NCBI RefSeq assembly: GCF_054482595.1
Contig: NZ_CM137008.1
DNA: 64,000 nt
Strand: one strand, 5' to 3'
Shown here: positions 27,778 through 59,277 of the stretch, in pieces
Position numbering within the stretch: position 1 is the first letter of the stretch
Layout: every line of letters starts with the position of its first letter
Notes under the pieces: model-generated
What the model was told of the DNA's origin: nothing
What the model saw: the letters and a program-made list of their open reading frames with translations, nothing else
Databases searched by the model: none
Translations under genes and position numbers: made by a program

Positions 27778-28132
27778 GGGTTAATCCTCTTTGACGTATA
27801 AATTGCTGCACCAAAGGTGAACAGCGAAAAAAAATAAAAATTAAAAAAGTAGCGTTGAGAAAAGTCTCGCTGACTACAGGAACAGACTATTTTTCGCGAC
27901 GCGAATTATCAATCTCTTTCTGTAACCAGAATGTAAGAACATGAGCAACCGCACATATTTTGATGATTTTTGTTACAAGGCTTAAGTTTGCGGTTGAAAG
28001 GCTTGCAGAAGAATAAAAGCGTGAAATTCCAGCAAGATGAAAGCGGTTACATTTTATTTAATTATGTTTTGTGATTTTAAATTTATTTTATGGATAAATT
28101 GCGAAGCGGAATTAATTCGTGAAGAAAAGCAG

Positions 28133-30022: not shown

Positions 30023-30183
30023 CGTGGATTCCTCAAAGCGTAAACAACGTATAACGGCGTATGATCTTATAAGCGGGACAGGCTGACAACTGTTAGTTAG
30101 TGAAAATCGAAAATCTCACTGAGATTATGGGGATGATTGATGAAAAAAAAAGCGGCAGAGAAGATCTCCACCGCTTGTCATTG

Positions 30184-38802: not shown

Positions 38803-38842
38803 GCGCCCCGCAACGCCGATAAGGTATCGCGAAAAAAAAGAT

Positions 38843-50364: not shown

Positions 50365-51300
50365 ATGGCACTGCCAATTCTGTTAGATTGCGACCCAGGT
50401 CATGATGACGCTATCGCAATAGTTCTCGCCCTCGCCTCACCAGAGCTTGATGTCAAAGCAATTACGTCTTCCGCCGGAAACCAGACACCAGAAAAAACCT
50501 TACGCAATGTTCTGCGTATGCTGACCTTGCTTAATCGCACCGATATTCCGGTGGCAGGCGGCGCGGTAAAACCGTTAATGCGTGAGTTGATTATCGCGGA
50601 CAATGTGCACGGCGAAAGCGGTCTCGACGGCCCGGCATTACCGGAACCGACGTTTGCACCGCAAAAGTGTACGGCGGTGGAGCTGATGGCGAAAACGCTA
50701 CGTGAAAGTGCGGAACCTGTCACCATTGTTTCTACCGGACCGCAAACTAACGTTGCTTTGCTGCTCAATAGCCATCCGGAACTGCATAGCAAAATTGCCC
50801 GTATCGTGATTATGGGCGGCGCAATGGGGCTGGGTAACTGGACGCCTGCGGCTGAATTTAATATTTACGTTGACCCGGAAGCGGCAGAAATTGTCTTCCA
50901 GTCAGGGATCCCGGTGGTGATGGCCGGTCTGGATGTTACTCACAAAGCGCAAATCCACGTTGAGGACACCGAGCGTTTCCGCGCGATTGGTAACCCGGTT
51001 TCAACCATTGTTGCCGAACTGCTGGATTTCTTCCTCGAATATCATAAAGACGAAAAATGGGGCTTTGTCGGCGCACCGCTGCATGACCCATGCACCATCG
51101 CCTGGCTGTTGAAACCCGAGTTGTTTACCACTGTTGAGCGCTGGGTTGGCGTGGAAACACAGGGGAAATATACCCAGGGGATGACGGTTGTTGATTATTA
51201 TTATCTGACTGGCAATAAACCGAATGCCACTGTAATGGTCGATGTTGATCGTCAGGGCTTTGTTGATTTACTGGCTGATCGTCTGAAATTTTACGCTTAA
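50365..51300 (+). CDS. rihA: Pyrimidine-specific ribonucleoside hydrolase RihA
   Basis: 311 aa from [16 protein letters not shown] (nucleoside hydrolase DxDxxxDD motif); ATG at 50365. Confidence 0.93.
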
Positions 51301-51384
51301 CACACGTCATTGATTAAGATCACCACGCGTTACCTGGGTGGTCTTAATCTGTTTATCTCTTTTTTTTTTCAAGATATAAATGCA

Positions 51385-53055
51385 ATGGATAATGCAGAAC
51401 TCGCCATTGGTATCGATCTCGGTACTACCAATAGTTTAATTGCCGTCTGGAAAGACGGTGCCGCGCAATTAATTCCAAATAAGTTCGGTGAATATTTAAC
51501 ACCATCCATAATTAGCATGGATGAAAATAATCATATTTTAGTCGGAAAACCGGCTGTATCACGGCGTACTTCGCATCCGGATAAAACGGCAGCGTTATTT
51601 AAACGTGCAATGGGCAGTAATACCAACTGGCAGTTAGGCAGCGACACATTTAACGCGCCAGAACTGTCCTCTTTGGTATTACGCTCATTAAAAGAAGATG
51701 CCGAAGAATTTCTGCAACGTCCGATTAAAGATGTGGTGATCTCTGTTCCGGCTTATTTCAGCGATGAACAACGCAAGCATACCCGTTTAGCAGCGGAGTT
51801 AGCCGGTTTAAATGCGGTACGCTTAATTAATGAACCCACAGCAGCTGCGATGGCGTATGGCCTGCATACCCAACAAAATACCCGTTCGCTGGTGTTTGAT
51901 CTCGGTGGCGGCACGTTTGACGTTACGGTGCTTGAGTACGCCACGCCGGTGATTGAAGTTCACGCCTCCGCTGGCGACAACTTCCTCGGTGGCGAAGATT
52001 TTACCCATATGCTGGTCGATGAGGTTTTAAAACGCGCGGATGTCGCCAGGACCACGCTTAACGAGAGTGAACTGGCAGCCTTGTATGCCTGTGTGGAAGC
52101 GGCAAAATGTAGCAATCAATCGCCAATGCACATTCGCTGGCAGTACCAGGATGAAACGCGGGAATGCGAATTTTACGAGAACGAACTGGAAGATTTGTGG
52201 TTGCCGCTGCTCAATCGCTTGCGAGTGCCGATTGAACAGGCGTTGCGCGATGCGCGTCTGAAGCCGAGTCAAATCGACAGTCTGGTGCTGGTTGGCGGCG
52301 CGTCACAAATGCCGCTGGTGCAGCGAATCGCCGTGCGTCTGTTTGGCAAATTACCGTATCAAAGTTACGATCCGAGCACCATTGTCGCGCTGGGCGCAGC
52401 AATCCAGGCAGCCTGCCGCTTACGCAGTGAAGATATTGAAGAAGTGATCCTCACTGATATTTGCCCTTACTCGTTGGGCGTTGAGGTTAACCGCCAGGGC
52501 GTTTCCGGCATTTTCTCGCCGATTATTGAACGAAACACCACTGTGCCCGTGTCGCGTGTAGAAACTTATTCAACCATGCACCCGGAACAGGATTCAATTA
52601 CGGTTAACGTCTATCAGGGAGAAAACCACAAAGTTAAAAACAACATTCTGGTGGAATCCTTCGATGTGCCGTTGAAGAGAACCGGGGCTTATCAGTCGAT
52701 TGATATTCGCTTTAGTTATGATATCAACGGTTTGCTTGAAGTTGACGTGCTTCTGGAAGACGGCAGCGTTAAGTCCAGAGTGATTAACCACAGCCCGGTA
52801 ACATTGAGCGCGCAGCAGATTGAAGAGAGTCGGACGCGGTTATCCGCATTGAAAATTTATCCGCGCGATATGCTCATCAACCGCACCTTTAAGGCCAAAC
52901 TGGAAGAGTTGTGGGCGCGGGCGCTGGGTGACGAGCGAGAAGAGATTGGCCGGGTGATCACCGATTTTGATGCGGCGCTGCAGTCAAACGATATGGCCCG
53001 CGTCGATGAGGTCAGGCGGCGGGCGAGCGTTTATTTAGCCATTGAGATCCCATAA
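51385..53055 (+). CDS. hscC: Hsp70-family chaperone HscC
   Basis: 556 aa from MDNAELAIGIDLGTTNS (Hsp70 N-terminal signature); ATG at 51385. Confidence 0.93.
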   Translation: MDNAELAIGIDLGTTNSLIAVWKDGAAQLIPNKFGEYLTPSIISMDENNHILVGKPAVSRRTSHPDKTAALFKRAMGSNTNWQLGSDTFNAPELSSLVLRSLKEDAEEFLQRPIKDVVISVPAYFSDEQRKHTRLAAELAGLNAVRLINEPTAAAMAYGLHTQQNTRSLVFDLGGGTFDVTVLEYATPVIEVHASAGDNFLGGEDFTHMLVDEVLKRADVARTTLNESELAALYACVEAAKCSNQSPMHIRWQYQDETRECEFYENELEDLWLPLLNRLRVPIEQALRDARLKPSQIDSLVLVGGASQMPLVQRIAVRLFGKLPYQSYDPSTIVALGAAIQAACRLRSEDIEEVILTDICPYSLGVEVNRQGVSGIFSPIIERNTTVPVSRVETYSTMHPEQDSITVNVYQGENHKVKNNILVESFDVPLKRTGAYQSIDIRFSYDINGLLEVDVLLEDGSVKSRVINHSPVTLSAQQIEESRTRLSALKIYPRDMLINRTFKAKLEELWARALGDEREEIGRVITDFDAALQSNDMARVDEVRRRASVYLAIEIP

Positions 53056-53061
53056 TCACGG

Positions 53062-53096
53062 CTGCCGGATGCGGCGTAAATGCTGCATCCGGCATC
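53062..53096. repeat. REP palindrome between hscC and djlC
   Basis: gccggatgcggcgtaaatgctgcatccggc. Confidence 0.7.
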
Positions 53097-53114
53097 GGCG
53101 CAAAAAACACATCG

Positions 53115-54566
53115 TCAACTAAACAACATCGCGATTTTGCCGAGAGCATAACCTATCACCAGCACCGTTAAGCTGATTTTGATAATGCTGATAATGCTCT
53201 GTGGTTTTTCATCCTCATCATTTTTTTCTTCATGGTTTTCAGGTGTTGGCTCATCGACATCTTCATCCTCCGGCTCGAGTTTTACTTTCGTCAACAGCAT
53301 CCGGGTGATAATGGCCTCTAATGGATGAGCATCTCCTCCTTCCAGCCTTGTATTGAGACGGGCCAGCATCTCTTGTTTCGGAAACGCTTCAAGTACTACC
53401 TGTTCCGCTACCCGATACAAATCCAGTAACGGTGAATCTTCTTCTGTCTCGCTACCGACTCTCGATTTCCACCACGCCCATGCTTTGCGTTTGAAGAATA
53501 ACGACTCAATAAACGATTGACCTAACGGCGATAGTTTTCCGTTATGTAAAATTTCCGCCCATAACAGACGCGTCCGGGCGCTCTCACCAGGAACATATTT
53601 CAACGGTTTACCTTGCGCATCTACCATGCTCCGCGCTTCGATAACCATCACTAATAACGCGAAATAATCCGGGCAATGTTGTGCGCTCCACTGCAACAAC
53701 AAATTATCGGCTTGTGTAGATGGGTAACTTTCCCAGTACGCGCAGAGATCGGCAAGCAGGCTTTCCCCCTCGCCGCAGTACAAACGTTGTGCACACTGGT
53801 AATACCGGGCATCTTCGCTTTCTGGTTTTTCCGTTTGCCACTGTTGGGCAACAGGAATGAGTTCCGCCATACCTGTTTGCACCGAGCTGTACCAGCGCAA
53901 CAGTTTGCGATGCAACTTCGCATCATCAGGAATTAACCACGGACCTGCCATCGCCAAAAACGCAGTGACATAGTCAGGATGGTAACGACAGCAACGTTCC
54001 AGCGCGAAGTAATACTCAACAGTCTGGTTCTGCAACGCAATGGGATATTCCAGAAGGCTAAGGAAATCGAAACAATCACCAGCCTGAATGGCCTCAAGAA
54101 AAGCCTCCCTTTCTTCCTCATCCATTCCTACGCTGTCATTAAACGAATGCCAGTTCAAACGCTCTGCCAGCAAAGAAGCACAATTTAATGAAAGATATCG
54201 CGCTTCTTTAGCGATTGCACACAGCGGCCAGCGTAATTGATCGACATCCTCCATGTTCCAGGTATTTAATTGCTGAATAAATTTCTGCCAGGCGGAAGGC
54301 TGAAAACGATCACTTTCTGAATCCAGTAATGTCCTGAATGCACGTAGTATTTCATGTTCAGCGGCGGCATCTTTTTCTTCATCATCTGCTTCCTCGACAG
54401 GATTTACCGCCAGTCGCAGCGCCTCTTCATAGGCCTGGCGTAATGCTTTAAACCCCTGCGGATCGGTTTCGGGATGACATAACGGTAAGCGAGCAAGATA
54501 AGCCTGGCGGATAATGTCTATTTGCGTCGTGCTTTCAATTTCGAGGATTTGCCAACATGTTTTCAT
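53115..54566 (-). CDS. djlC: J-domain membrane co-chaperone DjlC (YbeV)
   Basis: 483 aa; N-terminal J-domain with HPE variant of the HPD motif ([11 protein letters not shown]), C-terminal transmembrane segment; start overlaps the ybeU stop. Confidence 0.9.
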
Positions 54567-55270
54567 AGGTCGCTCACATCCTTAAGCGTTACCGGGCATT
54601 CAGGCTGGACAGTTAATGGTTGCCAGGGAAGCGTGGCATAGAAACGATCGCTTCCCGCAGCCAGCTCTTCGAACATCCGACTCCCGGCGCTATCGTATTT
54701 GTACAGGGTTAGCGCCTCGCGTGGCGAAGCGTTGTCTTCGCATTGAGAAGATTGCCAGTAGAGACGCCCTAGTGAATAGGCGGAAAAATAGTGCATCCAG
54801 CTGTGATAGTAATGGTGAGCTCGTACATAGACGCGCGATTGCAGCCATAAACTCTCGTCTTCCGTCAGCCACTTGTTGAGCACACCAACCCGTGATAAAA
54901 AACCCATCCGCACATAATCCCAGGCTTTGATTCCCCCTTCCCCACAGCACATAGCGGTTTGGGCAACGAACTGGGTATAAATCAACCCTCTCTCCGAGCC
55001 ACCAGCAATTAATGCTTTCCACTCTTCAGGGGAAGAGCGATGCCATGTCAGATATAAGCCAGCTAAATCATTGGCATGACCATCATCAGTCATCTGATAA
55101 ATAGTCTGAATTAAATCATCACGATTATTTATTCCCCAGGATGATGAGAGATCGAATTCTTTTATCCCGGTATACATTTTTGGCGAGTCATGCGCGGGTT
55201 TGCAACCCTGATTAAGTATTTCCATGGGCGCAGAAAGCGCAAAAAGAAGATATTGTTCTTCCTTATTCAT
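54563..55270 (-). CDS. ybeU: DUF1266 protein YbeU
   Basis: 235 aa, paralog of YbeR; translationally coupled to djlC. Confidence 0.88.
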
Positions 55271-55371
55271 TTGTTAATAATCCCTTAAGTGCATTAACTG
55301 ACTACTTTTTTATTATTGATGAGTATAAACTTGACGCTTTCAAAATAAAAAGAAAATCGAAGCATTCACAC

Positions 55372-55926
55372 ATGAATAAAAAATTAATGTATATATTCGC
55401 AATTTTTATAGTTGCAGCAATTACCTGTATTAGCCAACCCAAGAAAACGACGTTGCGTGATAAAGCCATGGTGAATTATGCCTTTGATTATTTAAGCTCA
55501 CCGGGCAGTCTTCCATTCACCACGGCAGCCACGGAGCTTTCCGCGATTCATGGTCACTCAACGTCGCAATATCGCCTTGGAGAATTTTATCTTCATGGTA
55601 GCGACGGTAAACCACTGGATTATACACAGGCGAGATACTGGTATGAGCAATCAGCGGAACAGGAAAATCCACGCGCGCAAAGTAAACTGGGGTGGATCTA
55701 CCTCAAAGGTCTGGGGGTCAAACCCGACACCCGTAAAGCAATTCTCTGGTATAAGGAAGCAGCTGAACAAGGGTATGCTCATGCTCAATATACTTTAGGT
55801 TTGATCTACAGAAATGGCTCAGGTATTAATGTTAACCATTATGAATCTCAAAAATGGTTAAAACTGGCCGCCAAACAACATTACAAAAATGCGGAAAGAT
55901 TACTTGCCGGGCTTCCCGCACATTAA
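55372..55926 (+). CDS. ybeT: Sel1-repeat protein YbeT
   Basis: 184 aa; N-terminal hydrophobic segment then Sel1-like repeats ([15 protein letters not shown]..., [15 protein letters not shown]...). Confidence 0.88.
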
Positions 55927-55935
55927 CGTCGAATG

Positions 55936-57363
55936 TCACCCGAACAGATGGAGTATTTTCCCTATCAAACCAGCAAAGATAAAAATATAGAAAATAATTT
56001 TAATGATGCCCAGACAGCCTGGCCCACCATCGTCAACGGGCATTGGCTGCGGTTGCGGCTCCGGTTCAACAGTTTGCTTCTCGGTAAAATTCGCCGCCTG
56101 AATTAATAATCGACGAATAATTAATGCTTCCAGTGGACAACGATTTTCTGCATCAAGACGGCTTACGATCGGCATTAATGATTCTTCTGTTGGTTGGCTG
56201 GCCTGCACTAATTGTTTGGCAACTAAATATAATGGCCATAAGGGATGTTCTGTATCACGCGTGAGTGAGATCCGCGGCTTACGTCCTTTGTGCAAAACCA
56301 TCTCGACCAGAGAACGCCCCAGCGCAGAGAGTTTTTCATCACTGAGTATTTCGTATAAATGAAAACGCGTACGAGCGCTGTCACCAGGGACATAAAGTAG
56401 CGGTTTTCCCTGATCGTTAACCAGTTCACGAGCTTCAATCATCATCACCACTAACGGGTAATAATCGACCCGATGCTGACGGCACCATTGCAATATTAAA
56501 GCATCCGCCTGGGTGGAGGGATACTCGCGCCAGTAGTCACAAAGTTCTGCCAGCAAGCTTTCGCCTTCTCCACAATAGACGCGTTGTGCGTATTCATAAT
56601 AACGCGCATCTTCATTATCAGATTCAGCTTCCCGCCACGACCGGGCGTAATCCAGGAGTTCGGGAATTCCCAGGCGACCTGCGCTATACCAGCGGAGTAA
56701 ATTTCCGTGCAGTTTTGCATCATCGGGGATAATCACTGCGCGATGTTGCGCTAAATACAATGTCAGCCATTCTGGATGCGATGACCAAATCCGAGCGAAC
56801 ATTTGGTAAAAATCGATGGTGTCATTTTGCACGGCAACGGGCAGATGCAGAATGGTCTGGAAGTTAAAAACATTCCCCTTCGCAATGGCATATAAAAAGG
56901 ATTCCAGTTCTTCTTCGTCTATTTCCCCGGTATTTTCCTCCTGTAACCACCGCAATCTTTCTGCTAATAACACCACGCACTCGAAGGATAAATGGGCAGT
57001 GTTCATGGCTATTGTGCACAGCGACCAGCGTAATTCATCAATCTCATCCATCGAGCAATAATTTAATTGCTGAATGAATCGCTGCCAGGCGGAGGGCAGA
57101 AAACGTTCACTATCAGAGGCAAGTAACGCACTAAAGGCGAGCAGAATTTCATGTTCTGCTACCTCATATTCTTCTGGTTGCCAAACAGATTTAGCAGGCG
57201 ACTGCGCAATCCGGAGCGCTTCCTCATACGCCTGACGAAGTTGTTTAAAACCCTGCGGATCGGTTTCTGGATGAAAGGACGGTAACAGCGCCAGATAAGC
57301 GCGGCGGATAATATCGACGTCAGTCGTTTCCTCTATGTTGAGGATCTTCCAGCAATTTTTCAT
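55936..57363 (-). CDS. djlB: J-domain membrane co-chaperone DjlB (YbeS)
   Basis: 475 aa, paralog of DjlC ([11 protein letters not shown]); C-terminal transmembrane segment; start overlaps the ybeR stop. Confidence 0.9.
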
Positions 57364-58067
57364 AGGTCGCTCATATCCTTAAGCGTTTCCGGGCATGTGG
57401 GGTAGTCAGCCAGTGGTTGCCAGGGTAAGGTCGCGTAATATGCATCGTCACTGGCAAATAATTGATAAAACATATCATTGCCGGAATCGTCGTATTCTTT
57501 ACGCGCTAAGAATTCACGTAATAAAGGCAGATTATCATCTTCGGGAGACTGCCAATATTGCCGACCAAAGGTATAACCGGCAAAGTATTGCCGCCAGTTA
57601 CTATAATAACGTAGAGCCCGTAGATGAATACGCGACTGGATCCATAGACTTTCTTCTTCACTCAACCAGTTATTAAGTACGCCCATTCGACTTAAAAAAC
57701 CCATCCGGACATAATCCCATGCTTTAATTCCTCCCTCACCACAGCATTCGGCTGTGCTGGCGACAAATTGCGCATAAGCCTGACCTTGCTCATTTAATTC
57801 AGCAAGATAGTCACGCCATTCACATGGAGAATAACGAAACCAGCGGTGATAAAACCCTGCCAACCGCGCGGCATGACCGTTATCGATCATTCGGTGAATT
57901 GTGCGCAGCAGGTCATCACGGTCATCAATTCCCCAGGAGGAAGAAAGGTCAAAAAAGCATGTACCTAAATACATTTTGGGGGATGAATGCGAAGGTAAAC
58001 AGCATTCATTGCGTATTTCCATCGGAGTGGAAAGTGCAAACAATATTTTTTGCGACTCCATGTCCAT
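57360..58067 (-). CDS. ybeR: DUF1266 protein YbeR
   Basis: 235 aa, paralog of YbeU. Confidence 0.88.
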
Positions 58068-58230
58068 ATAATTTATCCTTAAACATTCATTTAATGAATG
58101 TAAACTACATTACGAGGCTCATTTATTTATACTTTTCTGACACAACATAATACGCATAAAATAAGACTTACGCAAAAACGGAACACATAAAAATATAATA
58201 TGCTTTATCTGCAACCATAAGGAAATGATA

Positions 58231-59208
58231 ATGATTTTTACGTCAAGTTGCTGCGATAATTTGTCAATAGATGAGATTATCGAACGTGCTGAACAAGGCG
58301 ATAGTGAGGCTCAATATATTGTTGGGTTTTATTATAATCGCGATAGCGCAATTGACTCTCCGGACGACGAAAAGGCCTTTTACTGGCTGAAGCTGGCCGC
58401 TGAGCAAGGTCATTGTGAAGCACAGTATTCCTTAGGGCAAAAGTATACCGAGGATAAAAGCCGTCATAAAGATAATGAGCAAGCCATCTTCTGGCTGAAA
58501 AAAGCTGCCCTACAAGGCCATACTTTCGCTTCCAACGCCCTTGGCTGGATACTGGATCGTGGAGAAGACCCCAACTATAAAGAAGCGGTTGCCTGGTATC
58601 AGATAGCCGCGGAGAGCGGAATGTCTTATGCGCAAAATAATCTTGGGTGGATGTACAGAAATGGCAACGGAGTCGCACAAGACTATACGCTGGCATTTTT
58701 CTGGTACAAACAAGCTGCATTACAAGGCCATAGTGACGCGCAAAACAATCTGGCCGATCTTTATGAAGACGGAAAAGGCGTTGCTCAAAACGAGACACTC
58801 GCCGCATTCTGGTATTTGAAAAGCGCACAGCAGGGTAATCGGCACGCCCAGTTTCAAATTGCATGGGATTATAACGCTGGCGAAGGGGTGGACCAGGACT
58901 ATAAGCAAGCGATGTACTGGTATCTGAAGGCTGCCGCTCAGGGGAGCGTCGGCGCTTACGTCAACATCGGTTATATGTATAAACACGGACAAGGCGTTGA
59001 GAAAGATTATCAGGCTGCCTTTGAATGGTTTACGAAAGCCGCTGAATGCAATGACGCCACTGCCTGGTATAACCTGGCCATTATGTATCACTACGGAGAA
59101 GGAAGACCTGTCGATCTCCGACAGGCTCTCGACCTGTATCGTAAAGTTCAGTCATCCGGAACCAGAGATGTCAGTCAGGAAATTCGTGAGACTGAAGATT
59201 TACTGTAG
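58231..59208 (+). CDS. ybeQ: Sel1-repeat protein YbeQ
   Basis: 325 aa from the second ATG (MIFTSSCC...), which has better spacing to aagga; at least seven Sel1-like repeats. Confidence 0.88.
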   Translation: MIFTSSCCDNLSIDEIIERAEQGDSEAQYIVGFYYNRDSAIDSPDDEKAFYWLKLAAEQGHCEAQYSLGQKYTEDKSRHKDNEQAIFWLKKAALQGHTFASNALGWILDRGEDPNYKEAVAWYQIAAESGMSYAQNNLGWMYRNGNGVAQDYTLAFFWYKQAALQGHSDAQNNLADLYEDGKGVAQNETLAAFWYLKSAQQGNRHAQFQIAWDYNAGEGVDQDYKQAMYWYLKAAAQGSVGAYVNIGYMYKHGQGVEKDYQAAFEWFTKAAECNDATAWYNLAIMYHYGEGRPVDLRQALDLYRKVQSSGTRDVSQEIRETEDLL

Positions 59209-59277
59209 AGATAAAAACAAGGGCCGGGGAATTTCATTCGGCCCATATTCTCTTTATTGCTGTGCGAAATCAGACTA

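Follow-up and report, generated by a model that had tools for sequence, protein, structure and literature searches.

The run of ten T residues at 51360–51369 in the hscC leader is, judged from alignments and an allele census, a rare allele of recent origin, derived from the conserved polypyrimidine stretch just downstream of rihA. We think it likely that the tract is a mildly indel-prone, near-neutral polymorphism in an unstructured U-rich leader, in which premature termination keeps output low, and that it is no phase-variation switch. Nothing suggests a role for T10 in switching expression. The window referred to throughout is the whole 64-kb stretch of DNA that was analysed.

Position and origin of the T10 tract

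The window has the E. coli locus order gltJKL–rihA–hscC–djlC. A 501-nt query around the tract was 100% identical to XH990 and matched 5,418 of 5,426 complete genomes, whose annotation names the neighbouring genes rihA and hscC. The features of the region are:

50365..51300, plus strand: rihA coding sequence (pyrimidine ribonucleoside hydrolase), ending at 51300; its 3′ part holds the hscC transcription start sites (TSSs)
about 51183, plus strand: equivalent of the second K-12 RegulonDB TSS, at −201 (mapped from PMC10469882 Supplementary Table S5)
51196..51208, plus strand: −10-like hexamer TATTAT (51196–51201) and the equivalent of the EDL933 TSS, the A at 51208 (PMC10469882, sequence)
51295, plus strand: equivalent of the K-12 RegulonDB TSS 89 nt upstream of the ATG (PMC10469882 Supplementary Table S5)
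51312..51349, plus strand: conserved stem-loop with a 13-bp stem, GAUUAAGAUCACC/GGUGGUCUUAAUC, predicted at about −17.9 kcal/mol (folding)
51352, plus strand: equivalent of the K-12 Term-seq 3′ end (MG1655 683425, −32 from the ATG; PMC7815308)
51360..51369, plus strand: T10 tract, derived allele of ancestral TTTTTCTTT (sequence, alignments, allele census)
51370..51384, plus strand: AU-rich pre-start region CAAGATATAAATGCA, with an out-of-frame ATG at 51380 (sequence)
51385..53055, plus strand: hscC coding sequence, an Hsp70-family chaperone of 556 aa opening MDNAELAIGIDLGTTNS (ORF, PGAP)

In the first-pass annotation the tract lies 15 nt ahead of the hscC start codon. This is exact: a gap of 15 nt separates T10 from the ATG at 51385, and the PGAP start in XH990 lies at the equivalent position. 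PGAP gives rihA a length of 936 nt in K-12, XH990 and others.

T10 is the sole run of at least 10 in the window; the next-longest homopolymers are an A9 at 30143 and two A8 runs. Because T runs of at least 10 are expected 0.04 times in the window with independent bases and 0.14 times under a first-order Markov model, the tract exceeds the length predicted by composition alone. It is a true allele and not the error of one sequence, since 18 independent complete genomes share the exact T10 together with identical 40-nt flanks. Among the shorter runs, the A9 (30143–30151) occupies the nagE–glnS spacer, and an A8 upstream of chiP (27827–27834) is A6 in ECNB21-M121.

The allele census was based on 5,426 complete E. 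coli genomes, in 4,413 of which the hscC leader is present; the queries were 88–91 nt long, so that the 99% identity band admits exact matches only. Eighteen of the 4,413 leaders carried exactly T10 and three carried T9 (ECNB21-M121, APEC37 and ES5). The remaining leaders had an interrupted 9-nt tract, mostly the K-12 allele TTTTTCTTT (T5CT3), which alignments of the rihA–hscC spacer also placed in O157:H7 and ST131. Exact T8 or T11 was found in 0 of the 4,413 leader-bearing E. coli genomes, and spans of T12 or T13 length were absent among the matches listed, the top-ranked ones of the E. coli leader census. All 58 interrupted alleles that were sampled evenly down the ranking spanned 89 nt, with no length change. 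C-interrupted tracts were also seen on alignment in E. whittamii, E. albertii and two further Escherichia species; outside E. coli the tract was always pyrimidine and interrupted (TTTTTCCTT, CTTTTCTTT, TTTTTCTTT and, in E. albertii, the 10-nt TTTTTTCCTT). A metagenome scan for pure-T alleles of at least 8 gave zero matches: among the 53 metagenome contigs with the locus, none had a pure-T tract and 50 had T5CT3. This outcome is expected, because only 53 contigs carry the locus and the pure-T frequency is about 0.5%.

The simplest path to T10 would have two steps, in which a C>T transition first joined T5 to T3 as T9 and slippage then added one T, given that TTTTTCTTT is usual in E. coli and that the C-interruption recurs in other Escherichia. 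Interruptions stabilise microsatellite tracts, and the two forms of the hscC tract resemble interrupted and pure microsatellites in this respect: TTTTTCTTT was constant in length in the 58 leaders sampled, and the pure tract is T9 or T10 on three backgrounds.

The tract stands near one edge of a presence/absence island (~51304–59250) that comprises hscC, djlC, ybeU, ybeT, djlB, ybeR and ybeQ. About 1,005 of 5,418 genomes have rihA and lack the hscC leader; in PMV-1, ybeL and leuS directly follow rihA, and homology ends 3–6 nt past the rihA stop. The GC content of the block from hscC to ybeQ is mildly low (0.40–0.52), which gave us little reason to invoke foreign-DNA silencing. An exact peptide-pattern search retrieved non-Escherichia relatives of HscC, ~43–44% identical, from Lachnospiraceae/Eubacterium gut MAGs and not from other Enterobacteriaceae, which hints at a horizontal origin of the island and may be a sampling effect of the exact peptide patterns. 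A 737-bp contig of Rheinheimera sp. A13L encodes an HscC 99% identical to that of E. coli and is probably E. coli contamination. Shortened matches of the IS1 type occurred at the tract in two genomes. In PSJ-32-1 (NZ_AP027642) an IS1 end (GGTAATGCTGCCAACTTACTG...) follows the third T of the tract, equivalent to window position 51362; ybeT comes directly after IS1, and hscC, djlC and ybeU are deleted.

Probable length variation of the pure tract

T10 occurs on three 10-kb backgrounds, which differ from the window as follows:

Background A: window-like, 0–1 differences; ~13 T10 genomes
Background B: 95 differences; T10 in JX21CE8 and 23CRST027
Background C: 149 differences; T10 in 1504D004 and 1604D011

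The C>T change probably arose once, because A, B and C share a core (~50832–52410) that is SNP-free except for a B-specific SNP at 51490. Each background also has a T9 partner: APEC37 on A, ECNB21-M121 on B and ES5 on C. Over 4 kb, ECNB21-M121 differs from B by the tract and one SNP, and ES5 differs from C in the same way. APEC37 differs from A over 4 kb by three 1-nt indels only; frameshifts are flagged in its gltL and djlC. We treat the T9 of APEC37 as a probable assembly error because these neighbouring genes carry frameshift flags. ES5 and ECNB21-M121 have no frameshift-flagged genes within 48 kb, and both keep the lengths of the A9 at 30143 and the A8 at 38832; ES5 keeps every other alignable run of at least 7 as well. 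Since these two assemblies are free of such flags and retain their long runs, their T9 is probably real, with a homopolymer assembly error being conceivable.

A different reading of the same genomes is that there is no real length variation at all, with T10 fixed on a single hscC haplotype, which it marks, and each T9 a homopolymer under-call in a long-read assembly. The state of APEC37, with its three 1-nt indels over 4 kb and its flagged gltL and djlC, is what this reading would lead one to expect, and T10 is the longest run of the region and the most error-prone site even in good assemblies. However, ES5 and ECNB21-M121 show neither frameshift flags in 48 kb nor loss of the A9 at 30143 or the A8 at 38832, and a T9 is what one would expect as a step from TTTTTCTTT to T10. 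We regard an invariant T10 as unlikely.

The first-pass annotation had expected a tract of this kind to vary in length. Comparison across strains agrees, as the pure tract is not invariant: the 21 genomes that carry it comprise T10 (18) and T9 (3), both found on three flanking haplotypes. The presence of T9 and T10 on each of the three implies at least two independent length changes, if the T9 of ES5 and ECNB21-M121 is real. In the B and C pairs the tract changed once while ~1 SNP accrued per 4 kb, which suggests, very roughly, that tract change outpaces per-site substitution a few thousandfold. By this rough reckoning the tract would be mildly hypermutable, far below true contingency loci. 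The 18:3 excess of T10 over T9 on three backgrounds could reflect weak selection for T10 and not neutrality.

Could slippage in the tract nevertheless alter promoter geometry or leader function, and so switch or tune hscC and its J-protein partners between cells? The tract is pure and of a length at which slippage can occur, and each of three haplotypes has both T9 and T10. However, there are two lengths only, at 18:3. The ~13 near-identical background-A genomes span several hosts and countries and carry T10 without exception; T9 is found on this background in one case, the error-prone assembly APEC37. A non-slipping, interrupted tract is present in 99.5% of strains. The tract can be 10 nt (E. 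albertii) or 9 nt (E. coli) long, both being tolerated, and predicted folding is independent of the allele. The suggestion that the tract modulates the hscC system is likewise not upheld across strains: ~99.5% of hscC-bearing E. coli have a C-interrupted tract without length variation, and the other Escherichia species examined are C-interrupted too.

Comparison with known systems leads to a similar picture. Phase-variable tracts include poly-C in the Bordetella fim promoters, poly-G in the spacers of Neisseria porA and opc, and poly-A in Mycoplasma vlp promoters. Like these contingency tracts, the hscC tract is a pure mononucleotide run near a gene start, polymorphic in length among close relatives. 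Unlike them, it lies outside both the ORF and the promoter spacer and has 9 or 10 units only, and its pure form is present in ~0.5% of strains (21/4,413), so that it is not a conserved feature of the gene. In mismatch-repair-proficient hosts, slippage of a run this long is slower by orders of magnitude; the host of the hscC tract is such a species, in contrast to the setting of contingency loci. The features of a contingency locus are therefore represented in part: a pure run long enough to slip (about ≥9 for A/T) and a length that differs among close isolates are present, whereas the tract is not conserved species-wide and sits in neither an ORF nor a promoter spacer. We classify the hscC T10 as an ordinary indel-prone homopolymer polymorphism.

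Transcription start, stem-loop and 3′ end of the leader

Published maps for K-12 and EDL933 place the starts of hscC transcripts 89–201 nt upstream, inside rihA. The RegulonDB distances for K-12 are 89 and 201 (PMC10469882 Supplementary Table S5), and the EDL933 Cappable-seq TSS 764706(−) is assigned to hscC in all condition columns, with a distance of 176 (PMC10469882, supplementary file 6). The hexamer TATTAT lies at exactly −12 to −7 of this −176 TSS, when the coordinate mapping allows for the 1 extra T of the window. The MG1655 Cappable-seq supplements list nothing for this site, and the hscC promoters reported elsewhere are in silico sigma70 and sigma32 predictions only (PMC3861889). All transcript maps used come from strains with an interrupted allele. 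The earlier assignment of the tract to the “promoter/5′UTR” is thus right in its second half: the tract is in the transcribed leader and not in a promoter spacer, because transcription starts, in the published maps, 89, 176 and 201 nt ahead of the ATG.

A sigma-70 scan gave the same answer, in that no credible −35/−10 pair brackets the tract, and the region held 4 promoter-like matches vs 4.0 expected from shuffles. The promoter version of the switch could draw on a −35-like TTTTCA, which includes the last four Ts, and a GATAAT at 16-nt spacing. We rejected this pair, from which transcription would begin past the ATG, within the ORF, and which belongs to a set of hits equal to the shuffled expectation. 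With the mapped TSSs 89–201 nt upstream, the tract does not lie between a −35 and a −10. Combined with the allele distribution, these data make a contingency switch at hscC very improbable in our view. Manual inspection also led us to discard TATAAA (51375–51380) as a −10 element; it has no usable −35, and its start would fall on or after the ATG.

Downstream of the mapped starts the leader RNA passes through the stem-loop at 51312–51349. The 95-nt region around it has a folding z of −3.1. Its stem arms are invariant in five Escherichia species except for one E. albertii change, the loop varies freely, and the base of the stem is AU-rich. An Rfam search of 51100–51600 with E-values up to 1 returned no match. 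We also considered a weak hairpin (51351–51381) that would enclose the tract and dismissed it, since B2 E. coli, E. whittamii and E. albertii carry changes in its 5′ arm (GUUUAU) that are not compensated.

A strong RNA 3′ end has been mapped to the foot of the stem-loop in K-12. The 61-nt Term-seq context sequence aligns to window 51302–51362 and puts this end at 51352, which is 3 nt past the stem; the tract begins 8 nt further on. The 3′ end averages 91,024 reads, as against 42,928 for SroC, an sRNA nearby (Adams et al. 2021, PMC7815308). It has a Rho score of 3.19 and a “Yes” for significant Rho termination region (PMC7815308, supplementary files 1, 3); its intrinsic terminator score of 1.99 is below the authors' cutoff of 3.0, and it is bicyclomycin-sensitive (PMC7815308). 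The Rho score peaks at 6.5 (p = 1.9e-15) at 683379(−), +14 of hscC (PMC7815308, supplementary file 2), which corresponds to about window 51399; these scores were computed in 800-nt windows, within which an element is not localisable. Exonucleases trim Rho-terminated RNAs back (Adams et al. 2021, PMC7815308), and a 3′ end at the foot of the hairpin fits with this. The −32 site is absent from the main text of Adams et al. 2021 (PMC7815308). In the ± bicyclomycin Term-seq catalogue of that study it is listed as an “upstream ORF” 3′ end in a significant Rho region, and to this extent hscC is like the other entries; unlike the catalogued Rho leaders, its tract lies downstream of the mapped end and is U-rich, not C-rich.

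The 3′ end at 51352 (~91,000 reads) is more abundant than that of SroC (~43,000). A stable RNA of ~58–170 nt, from the hscC leader or the rihA 3′ UTR, is suggested. In the literature we found no sRNA for the rihA–hscC spacer, and rihA appeared only as a UhpU target.

The stem-loop raises the question of whether the tract is the distal tail of a terminator, in which case the lengthening to U10 would make termination or pausing stronger, both behind rihA and in the hscC leader, and lower hscC expression. A stable, conserved hairpin is indeed followed by UGUUUAUCUC and then by the tract, and the strong K-12 3′ end lies at this hairpin. Intrinsic terminators release RNA 7–9 nt past the stem. T10, however, starts 10 nt after the stem, behind nine proximal nucleotides (UGUUUAUCU) of which six are U, and the RNA 3′ end is 8 nt before the tract. 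The site was not called by a terminator scan, the base of the stem is AU-rich, and the intrinsic score of 1.99 against a cutoff of 3.0 is accompanied by bicyclomycin sensitivity (PMC7815308). The stem-loop of an intrinsic terminator is present, while a U-tract within 0–2 nt of the stem and independence of Rho are not. T10 is quite unlikely to be a terminator tail because it is 10 nt from the stem, the RNA ends upstream of it and the site is Rho-sensitive.

The sensitivity to Rho bears on a further possibility, that the tract belongs to a rut element. Rho would then bind the pyrimidine-rich, G-poor RNA before the AUG, and the C>T change would lose a YC, weaken loading and raise hscC in the T9/T10 lineage. 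The change removes 1 of the 5 YC dinucleotides between hairpin and AUG, these 35 nt contain only 3 G, and K-12 has a significant Rho region here (3.19 at −32, 6.5 at +14). A rut site is typically some 70–80 nt of unstructured RNA that is rich in C and poor in G. However, the stretch, which is predicted to be unpaired, is U-rich and not C-rich, with 4 C in 35 nt and a C/G of at most 1.33 in 78-nt windows, and the 800-nt score windows cannot localise an element. Moreover, Rho usually terminates 100–200 nt downstream of rut (PMC7815308), so that the rut is more likely to lie upstream, in the 3′ end of rihA. We consider a rut at the tract improbable.

Translation start and a model for hscC expression

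The hscC start region is weak by sequence. No Shine-Dalgarno of the GGAG/GAGG type is present at −20 to −1, and the CAAGATATAAATGCA region hardly differs between Escherichia species, the one change being in E. albertii. The out-of-frame ATG (51380–51382) precedes the hscC ATG by 5 nt and begins an ORF of 19 codons, which extends across the start of hscC; the context AAATGCAATGG of this ATG is invariant across all Escherichia species compared. The tract itself, at −16 to −25, is predicted to be a single-stranded U-rich stretch without a Shine-Dalgarno downstream, about 80% unpaired in predicted ensembles. Predicted MFE, ensemble energy and accessibility of the start region (0.53–0.54) were the same for T5CT3, T9, T10 and T11. 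Modulation of hscC through RNA structure or start-site accessibility thus finds no counterpart in the predicted effect of the alleles.

These properties resemble those of S1-dependent leaders. Initiation on the U-rich leader of rnd is reportedly S1-dependent, and U-rich leaders are said to act in S1-dependent initiation more generally. By analogy, hscC would share with such enhancers a single-stranded U-rich stretch 16–25 nt upstream, the lack of a Shine-Dalgarno and an AU-rich start. Unlike in these enhancers, the common hscC allele is already U-rich and T10 adds little.

We favour a model in which the leader RNA passes the conserved stem-loop, at whose foot the abundant, bicyclomycin-sensitive 3′ end forms in K-12, and in which the tract may serve mainly as unstructured U-rich leader where the 30S subunit and ribosomal protein S1 can land at a weak start. 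This S1/standby role we infer from the position and composition of the tract only. Poor initiation would expose the nascent RNA, and because initiation is poor Rho may cut most hscC transcription short, which would keep HscC scarce. The model fits the bicyclomycin data, the failure to detect HscC in growing cells (below 0.1 μM; PMC8215388) and the growth inhibition caused by its overexpression (PMC3861889).

Within this model the change from UUUUUCUUU to U10 is expected to be neutral or to bring a small quantitative shift at most, because predicted structure and accessibility are unchanged. The 10-nt tract of E. albertii and the 9-nt tract of E. coli would show that both spacings are tolerated. 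A bolder proposal joins two ideas: that the hscC leader is a translation-coupled, Rho-dependent attenuator that nearly silences a toxic, sigma70-binding Hsp70, and that slippage between U9 and U10 resets or heritably varies its set-point, through better S1/30S capture or weaker Rho loading, making the tract an incipient contingency locus. We think it highly improbable that both parts hold together.

The tract offers a natural illustration of how a stable pyrimidine stretch becomes a homopolymer of variable length once a single interrupting base is lost. It also carries a practical warning about T9/T10 discrepancies between assemblies at this site. More is to be gained from the surroundings than from the tract itself: a long leader with its start inside rihA, a conserved stem-loop, a Rho-sensitive 3′ end and a start without a Shine-Dalgarno. 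These features of the leader may explain why HscC is barely detectable, and they would be useful as constructs for studying how this poorly understood chaperone is controlled.
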